IMG/VR virus record: IMGVR_UViG_3300031992_000029
Span: 1 to 64,000 of that record
DNA: 64,000 nucleotides
Direction: 5' to 3' (one strand)
Source of the DNA: a virus
Taxonomy: Duplodnaviria > Caudoviricetes
The number at the start of each line of letters is the position of its first letter. The first letter of the stretch is position 1. The notes below the pieces were generated by a model. That model was not told the origin of the DNA, did no database searches, and saw nothing but the letters and a program-made list of their open reading frames with translations. The translations under genes were made by a program, and so were the position numbers. Below, piece by piece: positions 1 to 16,006 of this stretch.

Positions 1-221
1 CCTGGAGGCCAGGGAGGAGGCCAGGCCAGGGGAGAGGCCAGGAGGAGGCCAGGAGGCTCCTGGAGGCCAGGGAGGAGGCCAGGCCAGGGGAGAGGCCAGG
101 AGGAGGCCAGGAGGCTCCTGGAGACCAGGGAGGAGGCCAGGCCAGGGGAGAGGCCAGGAGGAGGCCAGGAGGCTCCTGGAGGCCAGGGAGGAGGCCAGGC
201 CAGGGGAGAGGCCAGGAGGCC
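1..221. repeat. 58-bp purine-rich tandem repeat, ~3.8 copies (may extend beyond window start)
   Basis: Unit CCTGGAGGCCAGGGAGGAGGCCAGGCCAGGGGAGAGGCCAGGAGGAGGCCAGGAGGCT at 1-58, 59-116, 117-174 (one G>A change), partial from 175. Confidence 0.95.
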
Positions 222-311
222 AACGATCCACCAGGCCGGGGAGCTCCTCTCCCCTGGAAGCTTGCCGGAGCTAGTGCGCAGCTTTCCAAATGCGCAGCAT
301 TTCGGAAGCGC

Positions 312-345
312 AAAAAAAGAGGAGGCCAGGAACGGCCTCCCCTCT
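312..345 (-). terminator. Intrinsic terminator after the minus-strand genes
   Basis: GGAGGCC/GGCCTCC stem with A7 on its left (U7 on minus strand), just past the stop of 364..579. Confidence 0.75.
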
Positions 346-363
346 CCGGGTCTCTATTCTGTT

Positions 364-579
364 TTAATCGCTGTATTCGCTATCTAATGGCTCCTCTAAA
401 TAGCTGTGGAAAGTAACTCCCTCCCGGGTAACATCCGCCAGGCAAGCTTCTCCAAATGCTTCCAGTGTAAAGTCTCTAAAAGCTCCTCCATCACTTAACT
501 TTTCAACCTCTCCAGGAGGGAGCTCCAGTCCATAAACTTTTGCTATCTCCAGGAACAAATCTCCGACCGAAAATATCAT
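364..579 (-). CDS. Small acidic hypothetical protein
   Basis: 71 aa ORF, strong RBS (GAGGAGGAG) on minus strand, follows the 694-aa gene. Confidence 0.7.
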   Translation of the reverse strand: MIFSVGDLFLEIAKVYGLELPPGEVEKLSDGGAFRDFTLEAFGEACLADVTREGVTFHSYLEEPLDSEYSD

Positions 580-597
580 TATTTTTCTCCTCCTCTC

Positions 598-2682
598 TTA
601 CTGAAAATGTCTCTCCAGGAGCCTATCCAACATAGCTCCTACTCCCTCCCAGGTCTCCAGGTGGTACTGTCTCCAGGTCTCTTCTACAACGGCCTCCGTT
701 ACGGCCTCCGTCTGTTCTTCTCCAAGGTTAAAATTTACTCTAGTGTAGAGGATTGCTTTCCAGGGGGCGAACCCGTCTCTGACCATGCTTACAGCGATAT
801 TTTGATATGTCTTATCGTAGGTCTCCAGGGAGTACTTTTTAAAGGGGCTCTTCCAAGTGTGAATATAGCCATACTCCTCCAGGTTTTCTTTCATGGTCTC
901 CAGGTCTCTCCTGGCCTCTTTCTCTTCTCTCCTCCGGGCCTCTTCTCTCCTCCTCTTAAAATTGAGTGCTACCTCCTCCCGGAGCTCTTTCTTAGTCTTA
1001 AACTCTCCTATCCTGGAAAGAGCCTCCTCCGAAAAGATACCACTTGCCAGGGCTTTCTTCTCCATCTGTTGAAAGCTCTTTTTTACGGAGTTTTTGCTTT
1101 TCAGTCCCTGGGCTGTTGTAATGGCCTCCAGGCCATATCCCCGGAGTGCATAATTCAATCTGACGGCCTGGGGCTTTGTAAGGTTGAGAGCTTCAATCAT
1201 GCTATCTATTTTCTCCAGGTCGTACGCACTAGCGGAGGCCGTAACGACTGTCTTGCCGTTACCGTGAACGTCTACCATGGAGGCCAACTGGCTATTCTTT
1301 TTCAGTCTCTTATATACTGTCTCCTCCTCTCCAGTCTCTTCATCCGTGACCATTTCGGAAATGTACATATATTTACACTCCGGGTCCACTTTCAGTGAAC
1401 GATTGTTACCAGTCTCATGCCTTACAGACCTATAAGCGATTGAAATAGGGGCTTTCTCCTCTTCTTTCCAAACTGGGTCATCCTGAATTAACACTCTCTT
1501 ATTAAGTCTCCTCCGGGTCTCCTCTCTCTCCAGGTCTACGGTGTTACCATTGTCTAGCTGTGATTTACTTTCTTCCAAAAGAGTGGTGAACGCTTCCATG
1601 ACTAAATCATATCCATCCCTTACCGTATCAGCATAGCCTATCCTATCATTAGGCTTTACGGCCTCCCCATCTTCATTGTAAATCATGGCCGTTTCTGTAA
1701 GCTGTCTATGTCTCTGTTCTGTCTGTTCTCTCAATTCTTTATCGATTGCTTTGTACATATTTACAATCTGAGGATTGCACCCGGAAGAGGTAACGGCTTT
1801 CTTGTAATCGGTGGCCTCCTGGGCTTTCTTCTCCGCCGTCTTTTTCTCCGGGTCCGCCATCTTTCTTAATACAGAACGTGCTACAGCAACCGCCAGGCTT
1901 TCCACTGTCTCCCTGGCCTCCTCCGTCTCCAGTTTCTCCAGGAACTCACTCCAGGAGAGAACTCCATGAAACAGAGTGTGGTATTTTTCCATAAGCTCCT
2001 GGAAAGTCCTTTTGTCTTTCTTATATGTCTCTTCCAGGGTCTTATAGCTCCGGGCCTCCTGGCCTCCCCATAATTCGATAGCTCTACCGGGTACAGTTAA
2101 GTGCAAACCCGTTTCCGTCATTTCCACCAGTGCCAGGGCCAGGAGCTGCTTTTCTCTCTCCTTGGCTTTCTCCTCCCTGGAAAGTCTATTCCATGCTTTC
2201 TGTTTCTCTTTCTCCTCCTGGGCTTTCTCCTCCTGGGCTTTCTTCTCCGGGCTCTTCTCCGGGGCTTTCTTCTCCAGGCTCTTCTCCTCCAGGCTCTTGG
2301 AGCTCTTGCCAACGGAGGGGAGGAGAGGGAGGACTAAAGAGCGGTATTCGATAGCAAACATTGACCAGTCAATATCTGAGAGGTGGTCAGCATTTGCGGA
2401 GTACAGCTCCAGGTATCTCTCTACCAGGTTCTTTCTCCCTCCGCAAAGCTCCAGGAGCTTTTTGGCTTTCTTCTCTCTCTCTGTCTCTGTTTTGGCCTGG
2501 GCCAGGTCTCCAACGGCCTGGAAAATGGACTTTACCAAGGAGCCATGCTCTGACAATCTCTTTTCAATGAAAGAGTTTTCTCCAGTGACCTCCAGGGCCG
2601 GAGCATTTCTCCTGGCCTCTCTGTTGAGAGCTTCAATCTCCATGTCCGTGTAAACGTGAGGTGTGTTGTTGATTGCTTTCAT
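598..2682 (-). CDS. Large sigma-70/ECF-like transcription factor (putative)
   Basis: 694 aa, RBS GAAAGGAG; region-2-like DGYDLVMEAFTTLLE and region-4-like HTH LTKPQAVRLNYALRGYGLEAITTAQGLKSKNSVKK; EEK/EKK pentapeptide repeats in N-terminal half. Confidence 0.55.
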   Translation of the reverse strand: MKAINNTPHVYTDMEIEALNREARRNAPALEVTGENSFIEKRLSEHGSLVKSIFQAVGDLAQAKTETEREKKAKKLLELCGGRKNLVERYLELYSANADHLSDIDWSMFAIEYRSLVLPLLPSVGKSSKSLEEKSLEKKAPEKSPEKKAQEEKAQEEKEKQKAWNRLSREEKAKEREKQLLALALVEMTETGLHLTVPGRAIELWGGQEARSYKTLEETYKKDKRTFQELMEKYHTLFHGVLSWSEFLEKLETEEARETVESLAVAVARSVLRKMADPEKKTAEKKAQEATDYKKAVTSSGCNPQIVNMYKAIDKELREQTEQRHRQLTETAMIYNEDGEAVKPNDRIGYADTVRDGYDLVMEAFTTLLEESKSQLDNGNTVDLEREETRRRLNKRVLIQDDPVWKEEEKAPISIAYRSVRHETGNNRSLKVDPECKYMYISEMVTDEETGEEETVYKRLKKNSQLASMVDVHGNGKTVVTASASAYDLEKIDSMIEALNLTKPQAVRLNYALRGYGLEAITTAQGLKSKNSVKKSFQQMEKKALASGIFSEEALSRIGEFKTKKELREEVALNFKRRREEARRREEKEARRDLETMKENLEEYGYIHTWKSPFKKYSLETYDKTYQNIAVSMVRDGFAPWKAILYTRVNFNLGEEQTEAVTEAVVEETWRQYHLETWEGVGAMLDRLLERHFQ

Positions 2683-2845
2683 TTTTGTTCTCCTTTCATG
2701 TTTGAACGTGTATGTAATTGTCCGACGGGGTTCACCGCCAAGTCAAATTTACCATACAATTAGAAACTTTACAAGGTCCAGGTAGTGATCCACCAGGAGG
2801 CCAAATTGAGAATCGCTTTCTCAAATTCAATGTCCGCTTTTCTCC

Positions 2846-2923
2846 CAAACGGACGTTCGACCCAAAAATCGAACGGGTGTTCCCCCTGGTTAGGGTATTC
2901 TAACCGGCCCGAACGCATGTTTG
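2846..2923. promoter_or_regulatory. Three Gram-positive LexA/DinR (Cheo) SOS boxes
   Basis: CAAACGGACGTTCG (2846-2859), CGAACGGGTGTTCC (2870-2883), CGAACGCATGTTTG (2910-2923); fit GAAC-N4-GTTY. Confidence 0.75.
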
Positions 2924-3532: not shown

Positions 3533-4330
3533 ATGACCACATTTGACTTCTCTACCAGAAAGCAGGTAATTGATATGCACGTTCTTCGCGAGTCTTCCAG
3601 AAAGCTGGCTCAGGGTCTCATCTCTCCGGCTACTGAACAGACAACCTGCGAACTTGCACCGGAACATGCAGCCGAACCTATTAAGAGCATGGACGATATT
3701 CTTCGTATCTCTTCTTATCTTAAGGAAGAGGAACGCTACAGAGATAACATGCTTTTCATAGTCGGAATCAATTTCGGACTTAGGGCAAGCGACCTGAGGA
3801 TGCTTCGGTTTTCTAATTTAATAAATGATAACTGCACTTTCAGAGATAGCTTCCCGGTCTTTGAGAAGAAGACACGTAATACCAGAAAGAGAAAGACCAA
3901 CCGGTTTATTACTATTAATAATGCAGTAGTAGATGCAGTCACTCTTTATCTGGAAAATACCCCCGGTACGTGTCTGAGTGACTATATGTTCAGGAGCGAG
4001 TCTAATAATGGAAGTAACAAGAATGAACCTCTGTCTGTTAAATCCATTGACCGTCTCCTGAAAGGTATAGCCGCTGATCTTGATCTGAATGTAAAGATGA
4101 GTACTCATACCCTCAGAAAGACATTCGGATATTGGACAATGGTGCAGGGCGGGAACGACCATCGTCGTCTTCTCCTGCTCCAGAAGATCTTTAACCATTC
4201 TTCTCCGATGCAGACTCTCACTTATATCGGTGTAACTTCTGACGAAATCGAATCCGTATATAAGAATCTGAATCTCGGCATTAGCATGGTTGACAGCAAG
4301 ATCGTAGAATATGTTTCTACGGCGAGTTAA
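3533..4330 (+). CDS. Tyrosine recombinase/integrase-family protein (catalytic domain only)
   Basis: GLRASDL (R), THTLRKT (HxxR), NHSS (H), TLTYIG (Y); RBS GAAAGGA. Confidence 0.9.
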   Translation: MTTFDFSTRKQVIDMHVLRESSRKLAQGLISPATEQTTCELAPEHAAEPIKSMDDILRISSYLKEEERYRDNMLFIVGINFGLRASDLRMLRFSNLINDNCTFRDSFPVFEKKTRNTRKRKTNRFITINNAVVDAVTLYLENTPGTCLSDYMFRSESNNGSNKNEPLSVKSIDRLLKGIAADLDLNVKMSTHTLRKTFGYWTMVQGGNDHRRLLLLQKIFNHSSPMQTLTYIGVTSDEIESVYKNLNLGISMVDSKIVEYVSTAS

Positions 4331-4422
4331 GAAATGATTAAAACGAAAGGAATTCTTTAAAGAATCAATCAATAATAAAAAGGTTTTGATTATTTCTTTA
4401 TTGGAATTAATGGTAATTAATA

Positions 4423-5685
4423 TTGATTTATGTTTGTGATGCCATAATGGGGAATGGCAAGTCGCAATCTGCCATCTCATATATGAATGAGCACAGCGAC
4501 CAGAAGTTCATTTACATCACGCCATACCTTGACGAGGCCGCTCGTATCAAGGCCAGTTGTCCGGCCCTCAATTTCGTCGAGCCACAGCAGACGCGCAGGT
4601 ATGGGTTCAGCAAGCTGACTCACACACATGCGCTCATTGAACGCGGCGAGAACATTACTACCACTCACCAGGCATTTAAGAATTATAGCGAAGCTACACT
4701 TAATGCTATACGTGAGCATCAGTATACTCTGATTATTGATGAGAATGTCGATGTGCTGGAAGTGTGTGATATTCATGAAGATGATATAAGGATTGCTGTT
4801 GAAGCCGGGTATGTAAAATTTGAAGACAGCAGATATGAGCTTATACGTGATGACTATAACGGGAATGCGTTTCGTGAAATGTTCTGGTTTATGCGTTCCA
4901 GACAGATTATGCGCATTGATACAGAAGAGGGCGGGCAGAAATGCAGTCTATACTATTGGGCTCTTCCGCCCGACCTCATCACATCATTTAAAGATGTAAT
5001 CATACTGACATATCTGTTTGAAGGTCAGAGTCTCCACAGCTTCTTGAAGATGTATGACCTGCCTTATGAAAATATAGGGATTAAGAGAATGCCAGGGGGT
5101 GGTTACAGTTTCTCAAAAGATGAGCTGTATACACCTGACTACGTACAGCATATACGGGACATGGTAAAAATAGTCGATCAGCCAAGGCTTAACTCTATTG
5201 GAGATGACTACACTGCTCTGTCAAAGAATTGGTTTGGAGCACACGCAGATGAAGCTGTGCCGCAACTGAAAAAGAATATCGACAATTTGTTTAAGAATAT
5301 CTGGAAAGATTCCGAAGCCGAAGAAAGAATGTGGGCGACGTATAAGACGCAAAAGGATTCTTTAAAGGGCAAAGGGTATACGAATGGATTTGTCGTACTG
5401 AATTTAAAAGCATCAAATAATTATAGGAATAAGAGATATCTTGTTTACGCTTGCAACTTATTCATGAACGTAAACGAGAAAATGTTTTACACAAAGAACG
5501 GTATAACCGTTGACGAGGATAAATATGCACTATCAATAATGGTTCAATGGATTTGGCGTAGCGCAATCAGAGATGGAGAAGAGATTTATATATATTTGCC
5601 TAGTAGCAGGATGCGTAAAATCCTAAACGATTGGATGGATAGTCTGACGGAAGGAGGGAGCGCTGATGGAGTACAGGCGTTGTGA
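4423..5685 (+). CDS. SF2 helicase-like/P-loop ATPase
   Basis: Walker A DAIMGNGKS, Walker B LIIDE, TTTHQ, motif VI-like QWIWRSAIR. Confidence 0.7.
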   Translation: MIYVCDAIMGNGKSQSAISYMNEHSDQKFIYITPYLDEAARIKASCPALNFVEPQQTRRYGFSKLTHTHALIERGENITTTHQAFKNYSEATLNAIREHQYTLIIDENVDVLEVCDIHEDDIRIAVEAGYVKFEDSRYELIRDDYNGNAFREMFWFMRSRQIMRIDTEEGGQKCSLYYWALPPDLITSFKDVIILTYLFEGQSLHSFLKMYDLPYENIGIKRMPGGGYSFSKDELYTPDYVQHIRDMVKIVDQPRLNSIGDDYTALSKNWFGAHADEAVPQLKKNIDNLFKNIWKDSEAEERMWATYKTQKDSLKGKGYTNGFVVLNLKASNNYRNKRYLVYACNLFMNVNEKMFYTKNGITVDEDKYALSIMVQWIWRSAIRDGEEIYIYLPSSRMRKILNDWMDSLTEGGSADGVQAL

Positions 5686-5854
5686 GAATTGCATCTTCTT
5701 CGATATCTGTAAAGAAACAGAGGTATGCGAAGATTTCGCTCCGTGTGGTGACGAAGTAGTCGATACATATATACAGGAAGAGATCATTGATGCTGGACGG
5801 TTGCAGTTCTATTCAGAATGGAACGCATACGTCTCACAGTATAATGATTTTTAA
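5666..5854 (+). CDS. Small Cys-rich hypothetical protein
   Basis: 62 aa, CxxC-x4-C-x5-C, RBS GGAGGG. Confidence 0.65.
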   Translation: MEYRRCENCIFFDICKETEVCEDFAPCGDEVVDTYIQEEIIDAGRLQFYSEWNAYVSQYNDF

Positions 5855-6559: not shown

Positions 6560-9334
6560 GTGATTATAATAAGCAAACAACTTGCTTGTCAGACATACAT
6601 ATATAAGATACACAGCAGTCGACTACGGAAGGCAAAGTGGAATCTTACGCTTCCGATAGAAGAAGCAAGGAGAAACGATGAAGTGATTGCTCTCGCCTCA
6701 TCGCAGATGCTTAGATGGATAGATGAATTAAATGGTGTCTATGACGCAGACGATAAGGCAAGATACATAAAGCACAGGATACGAAAGATAAGAAGGGAAC
6801 CGTATAGCGTCCAAAATAGAAAGCTAATCAAGGATCTATATCATGAGCTAGACATATTGCAATTTAAACCAGATTATATGTGTCTGATTATAGATAAAGA
6901 AAAAGACTACTACAGAGCGTGCCGCGGTTTCAGTATAAATGGCGTAGAATACCACAGGCTACTTGGTACGAATGGCGGTATCAAGAACTCAACAATAGTA
7001 TTCGTAAGCGAAAGGCTATACGGCGAGTTATCTAGAAGAGTTGAAAATGGACGTGATCAGGATAAGAAACTGGTAACAGCGAAACTTGAAGCATATAAGG
7101 CGTTAACATGTAGCGCATCAAACCCTGTGTCTCTTCCAAATGGAATTATAGTCGTCGACGATGTCGAAACAGAATTCTTATCAGACATTATATATATGAC
7201 CGATGAGGACTCTGTAGAACCGACAATGGAATTCAGAAAAGACGAACCTATAAAGATGGACGCGTCTGACGGGTTTGGAATCATGCTCCCGTCTCTTGCG
7301 GAGAGGTGGAGCTATGAACTAGGTCTTGACTACATAGTTAGTGGATTAAACACGAGGTTCTCATTTGAAAAGGGGATGGTATTCACATTCGACTTTTTGG
7401 ATTTTGCAGAGAATGTAGCTGGCAAATATGAGATAAAAGATGCGTGGGGCAATACTGTTGACGTTCGAGACGCCGAGCTTATACTTACAACATCAATGGT
7501 AAAACTATGGGACAGCTATAAAGACTGTGACGATTACGTCAATACATCTGTTGAAAACGGATATACTTTCGGAATCGCAAAGACATGCCCAAAAGAACTG
7601 GAATCAGAGCGTAACCTAAATTATCAATTCATACAAAGTTACGAACTTAACGATGATGATATTGACGAATTGATTGCTCCAACCATGAATGAGATAAAAG
7701 ATGTTCTAAATGCAGACTGGAAGAAAACTCTCCTATTCCTAAAAGGATCAGGTATAACAGGAGAAAATGTCGAAAGGTCAGCTAATGATTTTATAAAAGC
7801 GATTATGATAGACCACCGTATTATCGACGACCCTTTTGTTCAGTCTAATATATATCGCCTGATAAAGAACAGGATCAATGAGGCAAAGGTCGGTGTGATA
7901 AAAGTACACGGTAATTTTTCAATCATATCAGGCGATCCGTACCTGCTATGTCAGAACATGTTTGGGCTGGAAAAGACCGGGCTGCTAAAGGCCGGTGAAA
8001 TATATAACCGATACTGGGCAGATACCGATGCTGATAAACTTGCATGTTTTAGAGCGCCTATGACATGTCATAATAATATAAGGATTGTTCGTCCTGTGAG
8101 AAAGCCGGAATCAGATTATTGGTATCAGTATATGAACGCGTGCACCATATTTAACGGATGGGATACAGCGGCACAATCTTTAAATGGTGCGGATTTTGAC
8201 GGCGATCTTTGTATGCTAACAGACAATCATGTACTGTGTTCAAAACATAAAGCGCTTCCAACATTGATGTGTGCGCAACGTAAGGCAGAGAAACGTATAT
8301 CTACCGAGGAGGATTTTATAAAGTCAAACATAGAGAGTTTCGGCAATGATATTGGAAAGACTACAAACTGGATTACAAGCATGTTTGATGTCCAGGCTGG
8401 GTTTAGACCGAACTCAAAAGAATATGACACTCTCTCGTACAGGATAATGTCAGGCCAGTTATTTCAACAAAACGCTATAGACAAAGCAAAGGGTATCATA
8501 TGTAAGCCTATGCCGAGGTCGTGGCATGATAAACATGCGGTGTTTAAGATGGAGGCAGATGATGATACGGTAGAGTTATATCGCAATATAGTTGCTACTA
8601 AGAAGCCTTACTTCATGAGATATATCTACCCTGCGCTCATGAAAGAGTACAATACTTATATCGGAAATACGAACAGGAATGCTCTCAGGGAGTTTAGGCT
8701 AAGTGTCGACGAACTGAATTCAATGCCGAACAAAGATCTGACGCAAAGGCAAAGGGAGTTTCTTCAATTCTATTATAAGCGTATGCCAGTTGGTATTGGC
8801 AACTGCGTTATGAATAGAATATGCAGGAAGTTTGAAAACGAGTTTGATGGGTATATCGGTAAGCATAATTCTTCGACAGAATTTGACTATACAATTATGA
8901 AGAGTGATGTGCCGTATACACAAAAGCAATATTCGGAAATAAAACGCCTGTATGATGATTATAACAAGAGACTTGCAAGTTATGCTGTATTCTCAGATTA
9001 TGAGCGCGTCGACGAGACAGACTCGTTTAATGAACTGTCTTCAATGAATGAAGAGTTTAGGAAGGAGTGCGATAAGATATGTCCAAATAAGTTGGCACTA
9101 TGCAACATAGTCTTGGACATATGCTATAAAAAGAGTTCAACAAAAAGATTCGCATGGAATATGTGTGGCGATGAAATAATAGAAAATCTTCTTATCAATA
9201 ATAACCGAATAATCTCCTACCCTACACTTGATCCAGACGGCGATATTAGATATTGCGGTGAAAGTTTCAGATTGGAAAGTAAGAGATTGGAGGTACAGGA
9301 AGATGATTATTCTGAACGAACGGAAGTGGGCTGA
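6560..9334 (+). CDS. yonO: YonO-like single-subunit two-barrel RNA polymerase
   Basis: 924 aa with catalytic NGADFDGD, SDGFG, FRAP, QNAIDKAKG motifs of the RdRP-like/YonO family. Confidence 0.88.
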   Translation: MIIISKQLACQTYIYKIHSSRLRKAKWNLTLPIEEARRNDEVIALASSQMLRWIDELNGVYDADDKARYIKHRIRKIRREPYSVQNRKLIKDLYHELDILQFKPDYMCLIIDKEKDYYRACRGFSINGVEYHRLLGTNGGIKNSTIVFVSERLYGELSRRVENGRDQDKKLVTAKLEAYKALTCSASNPVSLPNGIIVVDDVETEFLSDIIYMTDEDSVEPTMEFRKDEPIKMDASDGFGIMLPSLAERWSYELGLDYIVSGLNTRFSFEKGMVFTFDFLDFAENVAGKYEIKDAWGNTVDVRDAELILTTSMVKLWDSYKDCDDYVNTSVENGYTFGIAKTCPKELESERNLNYQFIQSYELNDDDIDELIAPTMNEIKDVLNADWKKTLLFLKGSGITGENVERSANDFIKAIMIDHRIIDDPFVQSNIYRLIKNRINEAKVGVIKVHGNFSIISGDPYLLCQNMFGLEKTGLLKAGEIYNRYWADTDADKLACFRAPMTCHNNIRIVRPVRKPESDYWYQYMNACTIFNGWDTAAQSLNGADFDGDLCMLTDNHVLCSKHKALPTLMCAQRKAEKRISTEEDFIKSNIESFGNDIGKTTNWITSMFDVQAGFRPNSKEYDTLSYRIMSGQLFQQNAIDKAKGIICKPMPRSWHDKHAVFKMEADDDTVELYRNIVATKKPYFMRYIYPALMKEYNTYIGNTNRNALREFRLSVDELNSMPNKDLTQRQREFLQFYYKRMPVGIGNCVMNRICRKFENEFDGYIGKHNSSTEFDYTIMKSDVPYTQKQYSEIKRLYDDYNKRLASYAVFSDYERVDETDSFNELSSMNEEFRKECDKICPNKLALCNIVLDICYKKSSTKRFAWNMCGDEIIENLLINNNRIISYPTLDPDGDIRYCGESFRLESKRLEVQEDDYSERTEVG

Positions 9335-10172: not shown

Positions 10173-10186
10173 AGAACATATGTTCG
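10173..10186. promoter_or_regulatory. LexA/DinR SOS box upstream of the late region
   Basis: AGAACATATGTTCG in AT-rich intergenic DNA. Confidence 0.6.
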
Positions 10187-14206: not shown

Positions 14207-16006
14207 ATGGGTTATAACTTTGACTCAATAGATCCGTCGTATCGTAGAGAGATAGCACGATGCGCCGCTTATTATAGGGCTAACCCACACAGATTTGCAA
14301 AGGACATATTAAATCTCGATCTAAGAATATTCCAGCAGATTCTTCTTGTGATGATGAACTGGAGTGTCTCGTTTGTTTTTATAGCATCAAGAGGTTTGGG
14401 TAAAACATATCTCTCTGCTATCTTCTGTGTGATAAGGGCAATCTTATATCCAGGGTCAAAGATTGTTGTTGCGTCTGGCACAAGAGGTCAGGCTGTAAAT
14501 ATACTTCAGAAAATATTATTAGAATTGAAGCCGAAGTCTCCAGCTTTGGCTTTTGAAATAGACGAGAAGCAAACTAAATTGAACGGCATGGATGCCCAGA
14601 TTGTTTTTAAGAACGGGTCGTTCATAAAGGTTGTAACATCTGGAGACAGCGCTCGTGGTAACAGAGCAAATATACTACTAATCGACGAGTTCAGATTAGT
14701 TCCAAAGGATACCGTAGATACAATTCTAAGCAAGTTCCTTACTAACAACAGAATGCCAGAATACTCTGAGCTAACTCGTGCTGAGAAACGCATAGAGTAC
14801 CAGAAGGAACCGAATAAGACATTGTACCTAAGTAGTGCATACTTCTCTGACTCTTGGGCATATGCAAAGTGCGAGAGCACATTTAATATGATGCTCGACG
14901 AAAACAGACATAGTTTTGTATGCGGGTTCCCATATCAGCTCGCTATTAAAGAAGGACTGCTAATGGCGGAGGCCGTAGCAGATCAAATGGCTGAGTCTGA
15001 CTTTAGCGAAGTAAAGTGGTCTATGGAGATGGGCGCTGAATGGTTCGGCGCCGCAGAAGATGCGTGGTTTGATTTTGATTCTATATCAAAGACAAGACGT
15101 ATTAAGTATCCAATGCTGCCGGGCAGATTGGCAATTAAACTAAAGGATCATCCTTATATAAGAATAGAACCGAAAGCGCACAATGAAATACGAATACTTT
15201 CAGCCGATATTGCCTTGATGTCCAGTAGGAAGCATAACAACGACGCTACATCTATCTTTATAAATCAGATGATGCCTACGAAAGCTGGAAGATACATAAG
15301 TAACTTTATATATGGAGATACAATTGAAGGAATGCATACCGAAGACCAAGCACTAATGATAAGGAAATTATTTGATGAATACGAGTGCGACTACCTTGTA
15401 CTTGATGCGCAGGGTGTTGGTAGCGGCGTGTACGATTGTCTTGTAAGGGATATCAATGATCCAGAAACAGGAGAAATATATCCTGCTATATCTTGCTATA
15501 ACAATCCTGATATGGCTGCACGGTGTACTGTTCCAGGTGCAAAGAAAGTTATATGGGCAATTAAGGCTAGTGCTCAATTCAATTCGGATTGTGCATATAG
15601 ACTGAGGGAAGGTTTTAGGAGCGGTCGAATCAGACTACCTGTTACTGAGTATGATGGCGAAGAATACTTACGTGAAATTAAAGGATATGATAATCTGAGC
15701 CCGTCCGACAAACTTAAATTGCAGTATCCGTATATAAACACAACATTATTAATAAATGAGTTGGTCAAGTTACAGTATGAGGAGACCAACGGAAGAGTAT
15801 CGTTACATGAACGTAGCGGTATGAGAAAAGATAGATACTCTTCTATTTCGTATAATTATTATGTCGCTACATTAATTGAAAATAAATTGAGTAGACAAAA
15901 TAATATGAATTCAAGCGTATCAAACATGTTTGTTATTAAACCCCCATCTTATAGCGGAAAGGCGGTGAAAACGTTTGGAAGTAATAACAGACACGGGTGG
16001 TTCTAA
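14207..16006 (+). CDS. terL: Terminase large subunit
   Basis: ASRGLGKT Walker A, LLIDEF Walker B, LSADIA and KDRYS nuclease motifs. Confidence 0.92.
   Translation: MGYNFDSIDPSYRREIARCAAYYRANPHRFAKDILNLDLRIFQQILLVMMNWSVSFVFIASRGLGKTYLSAIFCVIRAILYPGSKIVVASGTRGQAVNILQKILLELKPKSPALAFEIDEKQTKLNGMDAQIVFKNGSFIKVVTSGDSARGNRANILLIDEFRLVPKDTVDTILSKFLTNNRMPEYSELTRAEKRIEYQKEPNKTLYLSSAYFSDSWAYAKCESTFNMMLDENRHSFVCGFPYQLAIKEGLLMAEAVADQMAESDFSEVKWSMEMGAEWFGAAEDAWFDFDSISKTRRIKYPMLPGRLAIKLKDHPYIRIEPKAHNEIRILSADIALMSSRKHNNDATSIFINQMMPTKAGRYISNFIYGDTIEGMHTEDQALMIRKLFDEYECDYLVLDAQGVGSGVYDCLVRDINDPETGEIYPAISCYNNPDMAARCTVPGAKKVIWAIKASAQFNSDCAYRLREGFRSGRIRLPVTEYDGEEYLREIKGYDNLSPSDKLKLQYPYINTTLLINELVKLQYEETNGRVSLHERSGMRKDRYSSISYNYYVATLIENKLSRQNNMNSSVSNMFVIKPPSYSGKAVKTFGSNNRHGWF

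Follow-up and report, generated by a model that had tools for sequence, protein, structure and literature searches.

Recognition words of DNA-binding proteins can be written into genes, as in the lambda ori iterons in gene O, the oriL of SPP1 in gene 38, and the pac hexamers of P1 in pacA, where the words are repeated in coding sequence beside a regulatory region and the protein segment concerned tolerates the demands of the DNA. These sets comprise 4–7 copies of 6–19-bp sites in less than 200 bp and belong to replication or packaging proteins. The locus described here lies at the left end of a rumen phage contig of 137,481 bp (IMG/VR record IMGVR_UViG_3300031992_000029), of which bases 1–64000 were studied and are referred to as the window; a near-identical contig of 137,443 bp is present in JGI sample 3300028833. 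Unlike the lambda, SPP1, and P1 cases, the first 2.7 kb of the window (the block) carries ~75 copies of a 7–9-nt word over 2.3 kb of a gene for a predicted sigma-like regulator, with conservation on one strand.

Other described systems resemble the locus in part. Transcription-factor decoy arrays and E. coli datA (for DnaA) are comparable in that many non-promoter copies of a site near a regulator would buffer it and set a threshold; known decoy arrays are non-coding and not strand-specific, whereas the word copies here are mostly coding, strand-specific, and putative as sites. The sponge RNAs CsrB and RsmZ, and the STAB-SD mRNA stabilizers of Bacillota, which bind 30S subunits through the anti-Shine–Dalgarno (anti-SD) sequence, repeat GGA or GGAG, and at this locus copies of the word in a neighboring tandem array fall in silico into the loops of short GC-stemmed hairpins, the word core resembling both the Rsm consensus CANGGANG and the Shine–Dalgarno (SD) core. 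In contrast to the sponge RNAs, most copies lie inside an open reading frame (ORF), transcription of the array would run against the local direction, and the phage has no CsrA gene; we know of no sponge RNA for the CsrA of Firmicutes. The phages of the SPbeta group also supply M.SPRI, a multispecific C5 methyltransferase that targets GGCC, CCGG, and CCWGG. The phage studied here is SPbeta-like by its YonO-type RNA polymerase, YonV_C, and terminase synteny, and all three sites are dense in the block; the enzyme was not found in the genome, however, and the sites proved to be facets of one asymmetric word, two of the three not being selected. A plausible functional analogue of the sigma-like gene is SigN of plasmid pBS32, an extra-chromosomal, LexA-controlled, DNA-damage-linked sigma factor driving a lethal or lytic programme, for which the literature consulted describes no word saturation (PMC6751061, PMC10601692). 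With 694 amino acids, the protein encoded here has double the size usual in its family. To our knowledge, a titration or throttle device of the kind considered below has not been described for any phage.

The repeated word and selection on it

The first-pass annotation of this DNA, made from the letters alone, had described positions 1–2700 as saturated with CCWGG, GGCC, and CCGG in coding and non-coding DNA, and its counts of CCWGG and GGCC in the repeat were correct on recount, as was its description of the 694-residue gene as dense in CTCCAGG, GGCCTCC, and CTCCGGG. CCWGG occurs 24 times in 1–240 (~5.8 per 58 bp), 44 times in 241–2700, and 45 times in 2701–64000, corresponding to 100/kb in the repeat, 17.9/kb in 241–2700, and 0.73/kb in the rest of the window. 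For GGCC the same three intervals gave 20, 23, and 53 copies (83, 9.4, and 0.86/kb) and for CCGG 1, 15, and 66. CTCCAGG was found 18 times in the block and once in the rest, GGCCTCC 9 times and CTCCGGG 8 times in the block and not in the rest, and the solitary GATC that had been placed near 225 lies at 225, with none in 241–2700. Densities of CCWGG, GGCC, and CTCC/GGAG in 1–2700 are 10–80 times those of the remaining 134 kb; the vocabulary had been said to fade past the block, and counts across the 137-kb genome confine it to the first 3 kb. CCNGG reaches 24/kb in the sigma-like gene against 1–2.5/kb elsewhere, and GGAG (34/kb) and CCNGGAG (14.9/kb) stand against 4.6 and 0.19/kb in the early region at 120–137 kb. 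In the rest of the genome, the word is not enriched (24 copies against ~26 expected).

A codon-shuffled control, proposed in the first-pass annotation, was carried out as 2000 synonymous permutations of the sigma-like gene that preserved the protein and its own codon use. Enrichment survived for CCWGG (39 observed, 12.8 expected, z 9.4), for coding-strand CCNGGAG (31 against 5.3, z 12.9), and for GGAG (71 against 41.9, z 7.6), and CCGG was also in excess (12 against 5.2, z 3.9). GATC was absent where 8.1 copies were expected. GGCC (21 against 14.0, z 2.7) and AGCT (15 against 12.6, z 1.0) are essentially accounted for by amino acids and codon use, whereas the excess of CCWGG and CCNGGAG goes beyond both. 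AGCT, which had been listed among the dense words, is not special.

Conservation was measured against L004, a Logan contig of 2435 bp, whose orthologue of the 694-residue protein has 92% protein identity and 87% DNA identity, the codon alignment providing 182 codons with synonymous differences. Words are found at the same position in L004 for 29 of 31 CCNGGAG and 66 of 71 GGAG. Third codon positions are identical at 84 of 86 sites inside CCNGGAG (0.977) and at 410 of 608 outside it (0.674; Fisher p 3e-11), a difference that is present in every 300-nt interval, and identity falls to ~0.6 within 4–6 nt of the word. GGAG without the CCN prefix is conserved at 0.97 (0.973 inside GGAG, ~0.61 away from it) and CCNGG without AG at 0.84, against a background of ~0.63, with which GGCC outside other words (0.61) and AGCT (0.58) agree; among 67 tetramers, GGAG ranks second for third-position conservation. 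The positional profile of the word is S-S-N-GGAG-R, with SS at −3/−2, a free −1, and a purine at +4. N is its least conserved position and differs from L004 at three sites (T to A once and C to A twice), at each of which Leu or Pro is exchanged for Gln and the word is kept; N drifts freely even where the amino acid changes. Sense-strand CTCC is enriched (18 against 6.2) yet not conserved (third-position identity 0.65), and selection on the word is therefore strand-specific. An overlapping antisense gene was considered as the reason for silent-site conservation and rejected, because the 263-residue antisense ORF is not kept in L004.

Two layers were separated by these data. The first is codon use: host-like codons ending in G or C alone raise GGCC, AGCT, and, in part, CCWGG. 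The sigma-like gene favors GAG, CTG, GCC, TCC, and CAG and shuns CAA, CCA, CTA, ATA, and TTA, and the shunned codons are the A/T-ending ones read by the nine phage tRNAs (Leu-TAA, Lys-TTT, Ile-TAT, Asn-GTT, Thr-TGT, Pro-TGG, Leu-TAG, Gln-TTG, and Leu-CAA). Beyond the contig junction, the early region at 120–137 kb is intermediate but similar in codon usage and GC content; like the sigma-like gene, it avoids most codons of these tRNAs, and this avoidance suggests a more GC-rich host. Taken together, the codon preference, the tRNA set, and the similar usage at 120–137 kb identify the sigma-like gene as an early gene with host-like codons. The second layer consists of the ~75 sense-strand copies of SSN-GGAG-R, mostly CCNGGAG, under strong purifying selection at silent sites. 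The nucleotide-level selection for a restricted vocabulary that had been suggested from the letters survives both the codon shuffle and the silent-site comparison, although the three separate methylase targets collapse into one asymmetric sense-strand word, CCNGGAG or GGAGGCC. The true unit is one dense, selected, strand-specific word, a real cis-acting signal and not a set of methylase targets.

Word spacing is irregular (median 15 nt), with about one selected word per 29 nt over 2.3 kb and without helical phasing, only weak peaks at 15, 42, and 57 nt being seen. The words are densest in the lineage-specific N-terminal (residues 1–300) and C-terminal (residues 551–694) extensions of the protein, at 2–3 times their density in its conserved core. 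They continue into the small acidic ORF downstream, which has 10 GGAG in 216 nt against 5.2 expected under the codon use of the sigma-like gene (13 of 2000 resamples reach 10). Polarity flips at the terminator that follows, which is separated from the 58-bp repeat by a spacer of ~100 bp.

The sigma-like gene, its boxes, and the arrays

The 694-residue protein had no significant match in sequence searches of Pfam, PHROGs, NCBIfam, and PDB. Its residues ~255–550 share 30–44% identity with a family of 300–400-residue proteins (285 cluster representatives), and its extensions are shared by the L004 protein only. An AlphaFold model of one relative, P0011, built from 87 sequences (pLDDT 85), matches region 4 of sigma-H, CnrH, SigL, SigW, and SigK over residues 253–321 (Z 8.8–9.7, root mean square deviation (rmsd) 2.2–3.0 Å), the best match having Z 9.7 and rmsd 3.0 Å over 67 residues; this segment aligns to residues ~485–545 of the 694-residue protein. 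Full-length structural matches of the model are to sigma factors only and weak, those to SigB, WhiG, and sigma-A having high rmsd. The ECF sigma profile TIGR02937 spans regions 2 and 4 of P0011 but scores E 2.4e-8 and 33.8 bits, under its cutoff of 42.9, and does not match the 694-residue protein itself. The protein is read as an enlarged sigma-70-like regulator with a region 4 helix-turn-helix domain. It is probably SOS-controlled: of 7 Cheo-type (LexA) boxes in 137 kb, 3 lie within 80 bp upstream of its gene.

The word extends beyond coding DNA. The core CCAGGAGGCC, a fusion of CCNGGAG and GGAGGCC, the pair of words that rank highest in the gene and from which the 58-bp array is built, recurs in the box upstream of the gene, in the left array, and in the right-end array, so that the word core is common to conserved non-coding boxes and arrays around the sigma-like early regulator. 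One copy of the 14-mer TGGCCTCCTGGTGGA lies upstream of the gene and two lie in the right-end array, and the two box copies that flank the gene co-vary, both reading GGTGGTCATTA in L004. The gene and its arrays have 150 6-mers per kb in common against 80 in the synonymous shuffle (z 9.6), while z is ~0 for five neighboring genes. In the left array, GGAGGCC, CCAGG, and AGGAGG abound on the plus strand, so that its polarity is opposite to that of the gene. As RNA, both of its strands fold into GGCC-stemmed mini-hairpins (z −2.9 and −3.4), and in the plus-strand fold of two units (z −2.9), AGGGAGGA or AGGAGGA forms the loops in silico.

The contig of L004 ends in the 58-bp array too. At the other end of the phage contig, ~430 nt of non-coding DNA and the 52-bp array precede the last gene, which is 38% identical (E 5e-62) to the gene beginning MTREE that follows the array in relatives; because the last gene matches this post-array gene, the gene map is circular, and the assembly broke in the repeat region. 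The first-pass annotation had considered a genome end carrying first-injected DNA. The contig stops, however, in an array that also breaks 23 of 60 relatives, and the gene at the far end is the usual downstream neighbor. Host DNA or a chimera, which that annotation had named as a possible refutation, was rejected on synteny: homologues of the core domain adjoin yonV/yonO in the SPbeta-like contigs examined, and the last gene matches. The block is neither host DNA, a chimera, nor a demonstrated physical genome end. In a wider sense, the decoy or switch region that had also been proposed is possible.

Comparison was extended to 60 IMG/VR relatives, ~45 of which had enough downstream DNA. A tandem array follows the stop of the homologous gene by 50–100 bp in 29 of these ~45 loci, with 2–6 copies of a period that is mostly 57–59 bp (49–92 overall), and 23 of the 60 related contigs end within 350 bp after the gene, at the array. 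In both relatives read in detail (L006 and L030), one copy of the box of the array is found upstream of the gene, in L030 directly before a sigma-A-type −35. In relatives, the sigma-like gene diverges from the genes for YonV_C and for an RNA polymerase of YonO type, and the window has likewise an RdRP-family YonO and a large terminase as neighbors. Sharing of 6-mers with the array is weaker in relatives (mean z 4.8 in 29 genes against 0.9 in 110 neighboring ORFs), and in 74 of 77 pairs, which are not independent, third-position conservation is higher for array-type words. The distant relatives lack a comparable saturation, their genes holding 0–3 GGAG; in their sigma-like genes (L011–L070, ~4001–5100) GGAG/CTCC stands at 0.2 of expectation against 1.0 in neighbors, GATC at 0.05, GAA serves for 81% of Glu against 45% in neighboring ORFs, and CTTG, TTGC, and GCCG are enriched. 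Given the low GGAG/CTCC and the GAA bias of relatives, odd word use is read as a family trait and saturation with GGAG as peculiar to this lineage. No further close relatives were found in protein and array-DNA scans of viral, metagenome, and genome contigs, and tblastn of P0011 against cultured phages likewise gave none.

Candidate readers of the word

The box and both arrays have the word as their core, CCAGGAGGCC, and on this ground the words, the upstream box, and the arrays are read as putative recognition sites of one sequence-specific factor. The block is read as a single early transcription unit, in a rumen phage of SPbeta-like type, consisting of the sigma-like gene preceded by SOS boxes, a small ORF, and a terminator, after which comes the tandem-repeat region within which the assembly broke. 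The likeliest factor would be the sigma-like protein, or its RNA polymerase holoenzyme on the non-template strand, and failing that a phage repressor. This factor would be titrated or stalled by the numerous weak sites within its own gene and nearby, giving the master switch of lysis a threshold and self-limitation. A DNA-level word in many copies that titrates or throttles the lytic master regulator is put forward tentatively, from sequence comparison, as a candidate that is more readily doubted than believed. The broader form, in which ~100 strand-specific sites serve as a landing pad for one reader, be it the sigma-like product, the 30S anti-SD, or a CsrA-type protein, and thereby act as a built-in titration or throttle device of the lysis–lysogeny switch, is somewhat easier to credit, though still short of probable. 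DNA-level recognition is placed first because the core occurs in untranslated boxes and in both orientations, N is free, and the boxes of relatives are placed like those of operators or activators; variation at N with Leu or Pro changed to Gln fits recognition of a split site by a protein rather than base pairing.

Several observations weigh against DNA-level recognition. Silent-site conservation was measured against a single close relative, bare CTCC on the sense strand is not conserved, as would not be predicted for a reader of plain duplex DNA, and one-stranded conservation accords better with RNA or with non-template DNA in single-stranded form. The left array runs opposite to the gene in polarity, and, the word being unenriched elsewhere in the genome, it is not a general promoter element; [AG]GGAATTT repeats in the early region could instead be the true promoter of the sigma factor. 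A good part of the word sharing in relatives falls in low-complexity, CCGCCG-type stretches of the array units, so that the family-wide claim is only suggestive. Such a weaker form, with array words in the gene and an array after it, would be common to many uncultivated SPbeta-like phages of gut and rumen that make up a large family.

Strand-specific conservation lends weight to a signal in mRNA, in which sense-strand GGAG(R) would serve as SD-like or GGA-type protein-binding sites, read by the 30S anti-SD as in STAB-SD, by a CsrA/Rsm-type protein, whose consensus CANGGANG resembles CCNGGAGR, or by a GGAG-specific RNase like RegB of phage T4, possibly with a plus-strand transcript of the 58-bp array as a sponge presenting the same sites in hairpin loops. 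Conservation is strictly on the sense strand (0.97 for GGAG against 0.65 for CTCC), the GGA core is invariant with a free base before it and a purine after, and the words span the whole transcription unit, including the unrelated 71-residue ORF, and flip exactly at the terminator; AGAAAG, which is co-enriched (17 against 5.2), is also complementary to the 16S 3′ tail, and the plus strand of the array folds into hairpins with the word in their loops. This signal is rated almost equal to DNA-level recognition and is no less tentative. Several points weigh against it: the anti-SD has no complementarity to the CCN prefix, the palindrome CCNGG shows moderate conservation of its own where AG is missing (0.84 against ~0.62), the same core occurs in both orientations in the non-coding box and arrays, and the array would need a plus-strand promoter of its own, none being visible. 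Searches of the phage for genes of CsrA and RegB found none, and SD-like words inside genes are usually selected against.

A polar DNA signal at a DNA end or origin, that is, Chi-like sites protecting a pac-generated end against AddAB/RecBCD, a packaging recognition region, or in-gene origin iterons, is considered unlikely. The gene words and the left-array words face each other around 230–300, the orientation in which Chi would be active if a break occurred at that place; the array lies at the turning point of both the cumulative GC skew and the two divergent arms of genes, and the related contigs that end at the array could be read in the same way, except that short-read assembly would break at tandem repeats anyway. 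In cultured SPbeta-like phages, pac lies between yonR and yonP, adjoining the yonO late block, which is the syntenic neighborhood (bioRxiv 10.1101/2021.11.22.469490), and a packaging role stays possible on that ground. The protein, however, is sigma-like and neither a terminase small subunit nor a known initiator, relatives have arrays without such saturation, and no known set of Chi sites, pac sites, or iterons resembles a 4–7-nt word that comes once per 29 nt; iteron origins have 17–22-bp direct iterons and an initiator-type protein, whereas the words here are of 7–9 nt and irregular.

The link to an SPR-type methylase, in which a cluster of C5-methylase or restriction targets (CCNGG/CCWGG, GGCC, and CCGG) would act as armor, decoy, or epigenetic switch, as the first-pass annotation had it, is now judged very improbable. 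It would account for the concentration of CCNGG in the gene, for the 0.84 conservation of CCNGG without AG, and for the absence of GATC from the gene; a C5-methylase-like ORF lies 3 kb away, and in P1 pac there is an earlier example of in-gene repeats that are controlled by methylation. GGCC and AGCT, however, are explained by codon use and conserved at background level, 14 of 15 CCGG sites in the block are CCSGG, i.e. CCNGG, so that CCGG is a by-product and not a target of its own, and the remainder of the genome shows no avoidance of CCNGG (ratio 0.90), giving no sign of a CCNGG restriction threat. A search for a multispecific methyltransferase, which had been suggested together with the link, returned as the only PF00145 match in the genome an ORF of 215 residues that matches only the N-terminal third of the model, and no SPR-type enzyme (several target-recognition domains, ~440–500 residues) was found by this search. 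With two of the three targets not selected and the strongest signal, GGAG, non-palindromic and one-stranded, the SPR analogy fails on the points tested. Least credible of all is a functionless by-product of host-like codons, a low-complexity protein rich in Glu, Leu, and Lys, and recent micro-repeat expansion. Codon use is shifted from the phage bulk as expected for an early gene unable to use phage tRNAs, the words are densest in lineage-specific, repeat-like extensions, and GGCC and AGCT are fully explained; yet synonymous permutation yields a sixth or so of the CCNGGAG observed (5.3 of 31), orthologous words are kept at silent sites where flanks 4 nt or more away drop to ~0.6, and amino acids change at N while the word stays.

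The coding DNA carries a second dense message that is kept at silent sites, even at the cost of amino acid changes. Should the word be read by the regulator or by the ribosome, temperate phages would have a novel means of setting the threshold for their lytic switch, and there would be a testable handle on a widespread, uncharacterized module of gut and rumen SPbeta-like phages that comprises the sigma-like gene, an array of ~58 bp, and RAGATH RNAs. As a caution, what looks like a dense cluster of restriction or methylation sites can be one aspect of another motif that is asymmetric.

Features of the locus and minor observations

Table 1. Features of the phage contig and of related loci (window coordinates unless stated otherwise).
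Feature	Position	Strand	Remarks
58-bp tandem array	1..219	+	At least 3.8 copies, 98% matches (TRF); lineage-specific; cut by contig end
Box copy CCGGCCTGGTGGATC	225..241	-	Between terminator and array; shorter copy of upstream box
Intrinsic terminator	305..345	-	GGAGGCC-N6-GGCCTCC, then T run; also in L004
71-residue acidic ORF	364..579	-	Insertion relative to L004; no family match
694-residue sigma-70-like regulator gene (predicted)	598..2682	-	71 sense GGAG, 31 as CCNGGAG
Sigma-A-like promoter candidate of sigma-like gene	2717..2746	-	TTGACT, 18 nt, GACAAT; consensus scan only
Upstream box GGCCTCCTGGTGGATCA	2788..2806	-	Holds core CCAGGAGGCC in antisense orientation
Three Cheo-type (LexA) boxes	2846..2923	.	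CAAACGGACGTTCG, GAACGGGTGTTC, CGAACGCATGTTTG
Tyrosine-recombinase-like protein, 265 residues	3533..4330		PF00589, phrog_216
C5-methyltransferase-like ORF, 215 residues	5900..6547	+	PF00145 positions 1–113 of 324, E 2.4e-7
RdRP-family YonO	6560..9334		
LexA-type box GAACATATGTTC	10174..10185		Perfect; before late region
Large terminase	14207..16006		
Phage tRNAs	92.8–97.4 kb and 126.6 kb of genome		8 of 9 for A/T-ending codons
Right-end array	Very end of contig		52-bp unit; unit core CAGGGTGTACTCCCAACGGT resembles units of relatives by eye
RAGATH RNAs in L030 (Rfam candidates)	5464–5535, 5711–5841, 8122–8278 of L030		
RAGATH-16 in L005	9943–10015 of L005		Follows tandem array

Features of the locus are collected in Table 1. 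Rfam searches of both contig ends returned no family at threshold, and no RAGATH family reached threshold in this phage. In L030, the array is followed by RAGATH-16 and RAGATH-4 RNAs and then by the gene beginning MTREE, with RAGATH-36 further on; from their position, the RAGATH candidates of relatives appear to lie in the early leader of SPbeta-like gut phages.

Some short words are depleted in the remainder of the genome, with ratios of 0.59 for GGCC, 0.63 for GATC, and 0.09 for GGATCC. In those 134 kb, AAGCTT is absent against 27 copies expected, and GGATCC occurs once against 12. AAGCTT is nevertheless found twice inside the block, at 258 and 445; the copy at 258 is not kept in L004, and that at 445 lies within the 71-residue ORF, which L004 lacks. 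Of the element [AG]GGAATTT, which often reads ATGCGGGAATTTC, the minus strand carries 24 copies and the plus strand 9, and 15 are clustered outside the window at 133.7–136.1 kb of the genome (L009:6200–8620), several of them directly preceding a ribosome-binding site; the element could serve as a promoter or operator of early genes. Besides the boxes upstream of the sigma-like gene, a perfect LexA-type box stands before the late region. Adjoining the switch region is the gene for the tyrosine-recombinase-like protein, which, by analogy with MrpR of SPbeta (PMC10516654), could be a repressor rather than an integrase.

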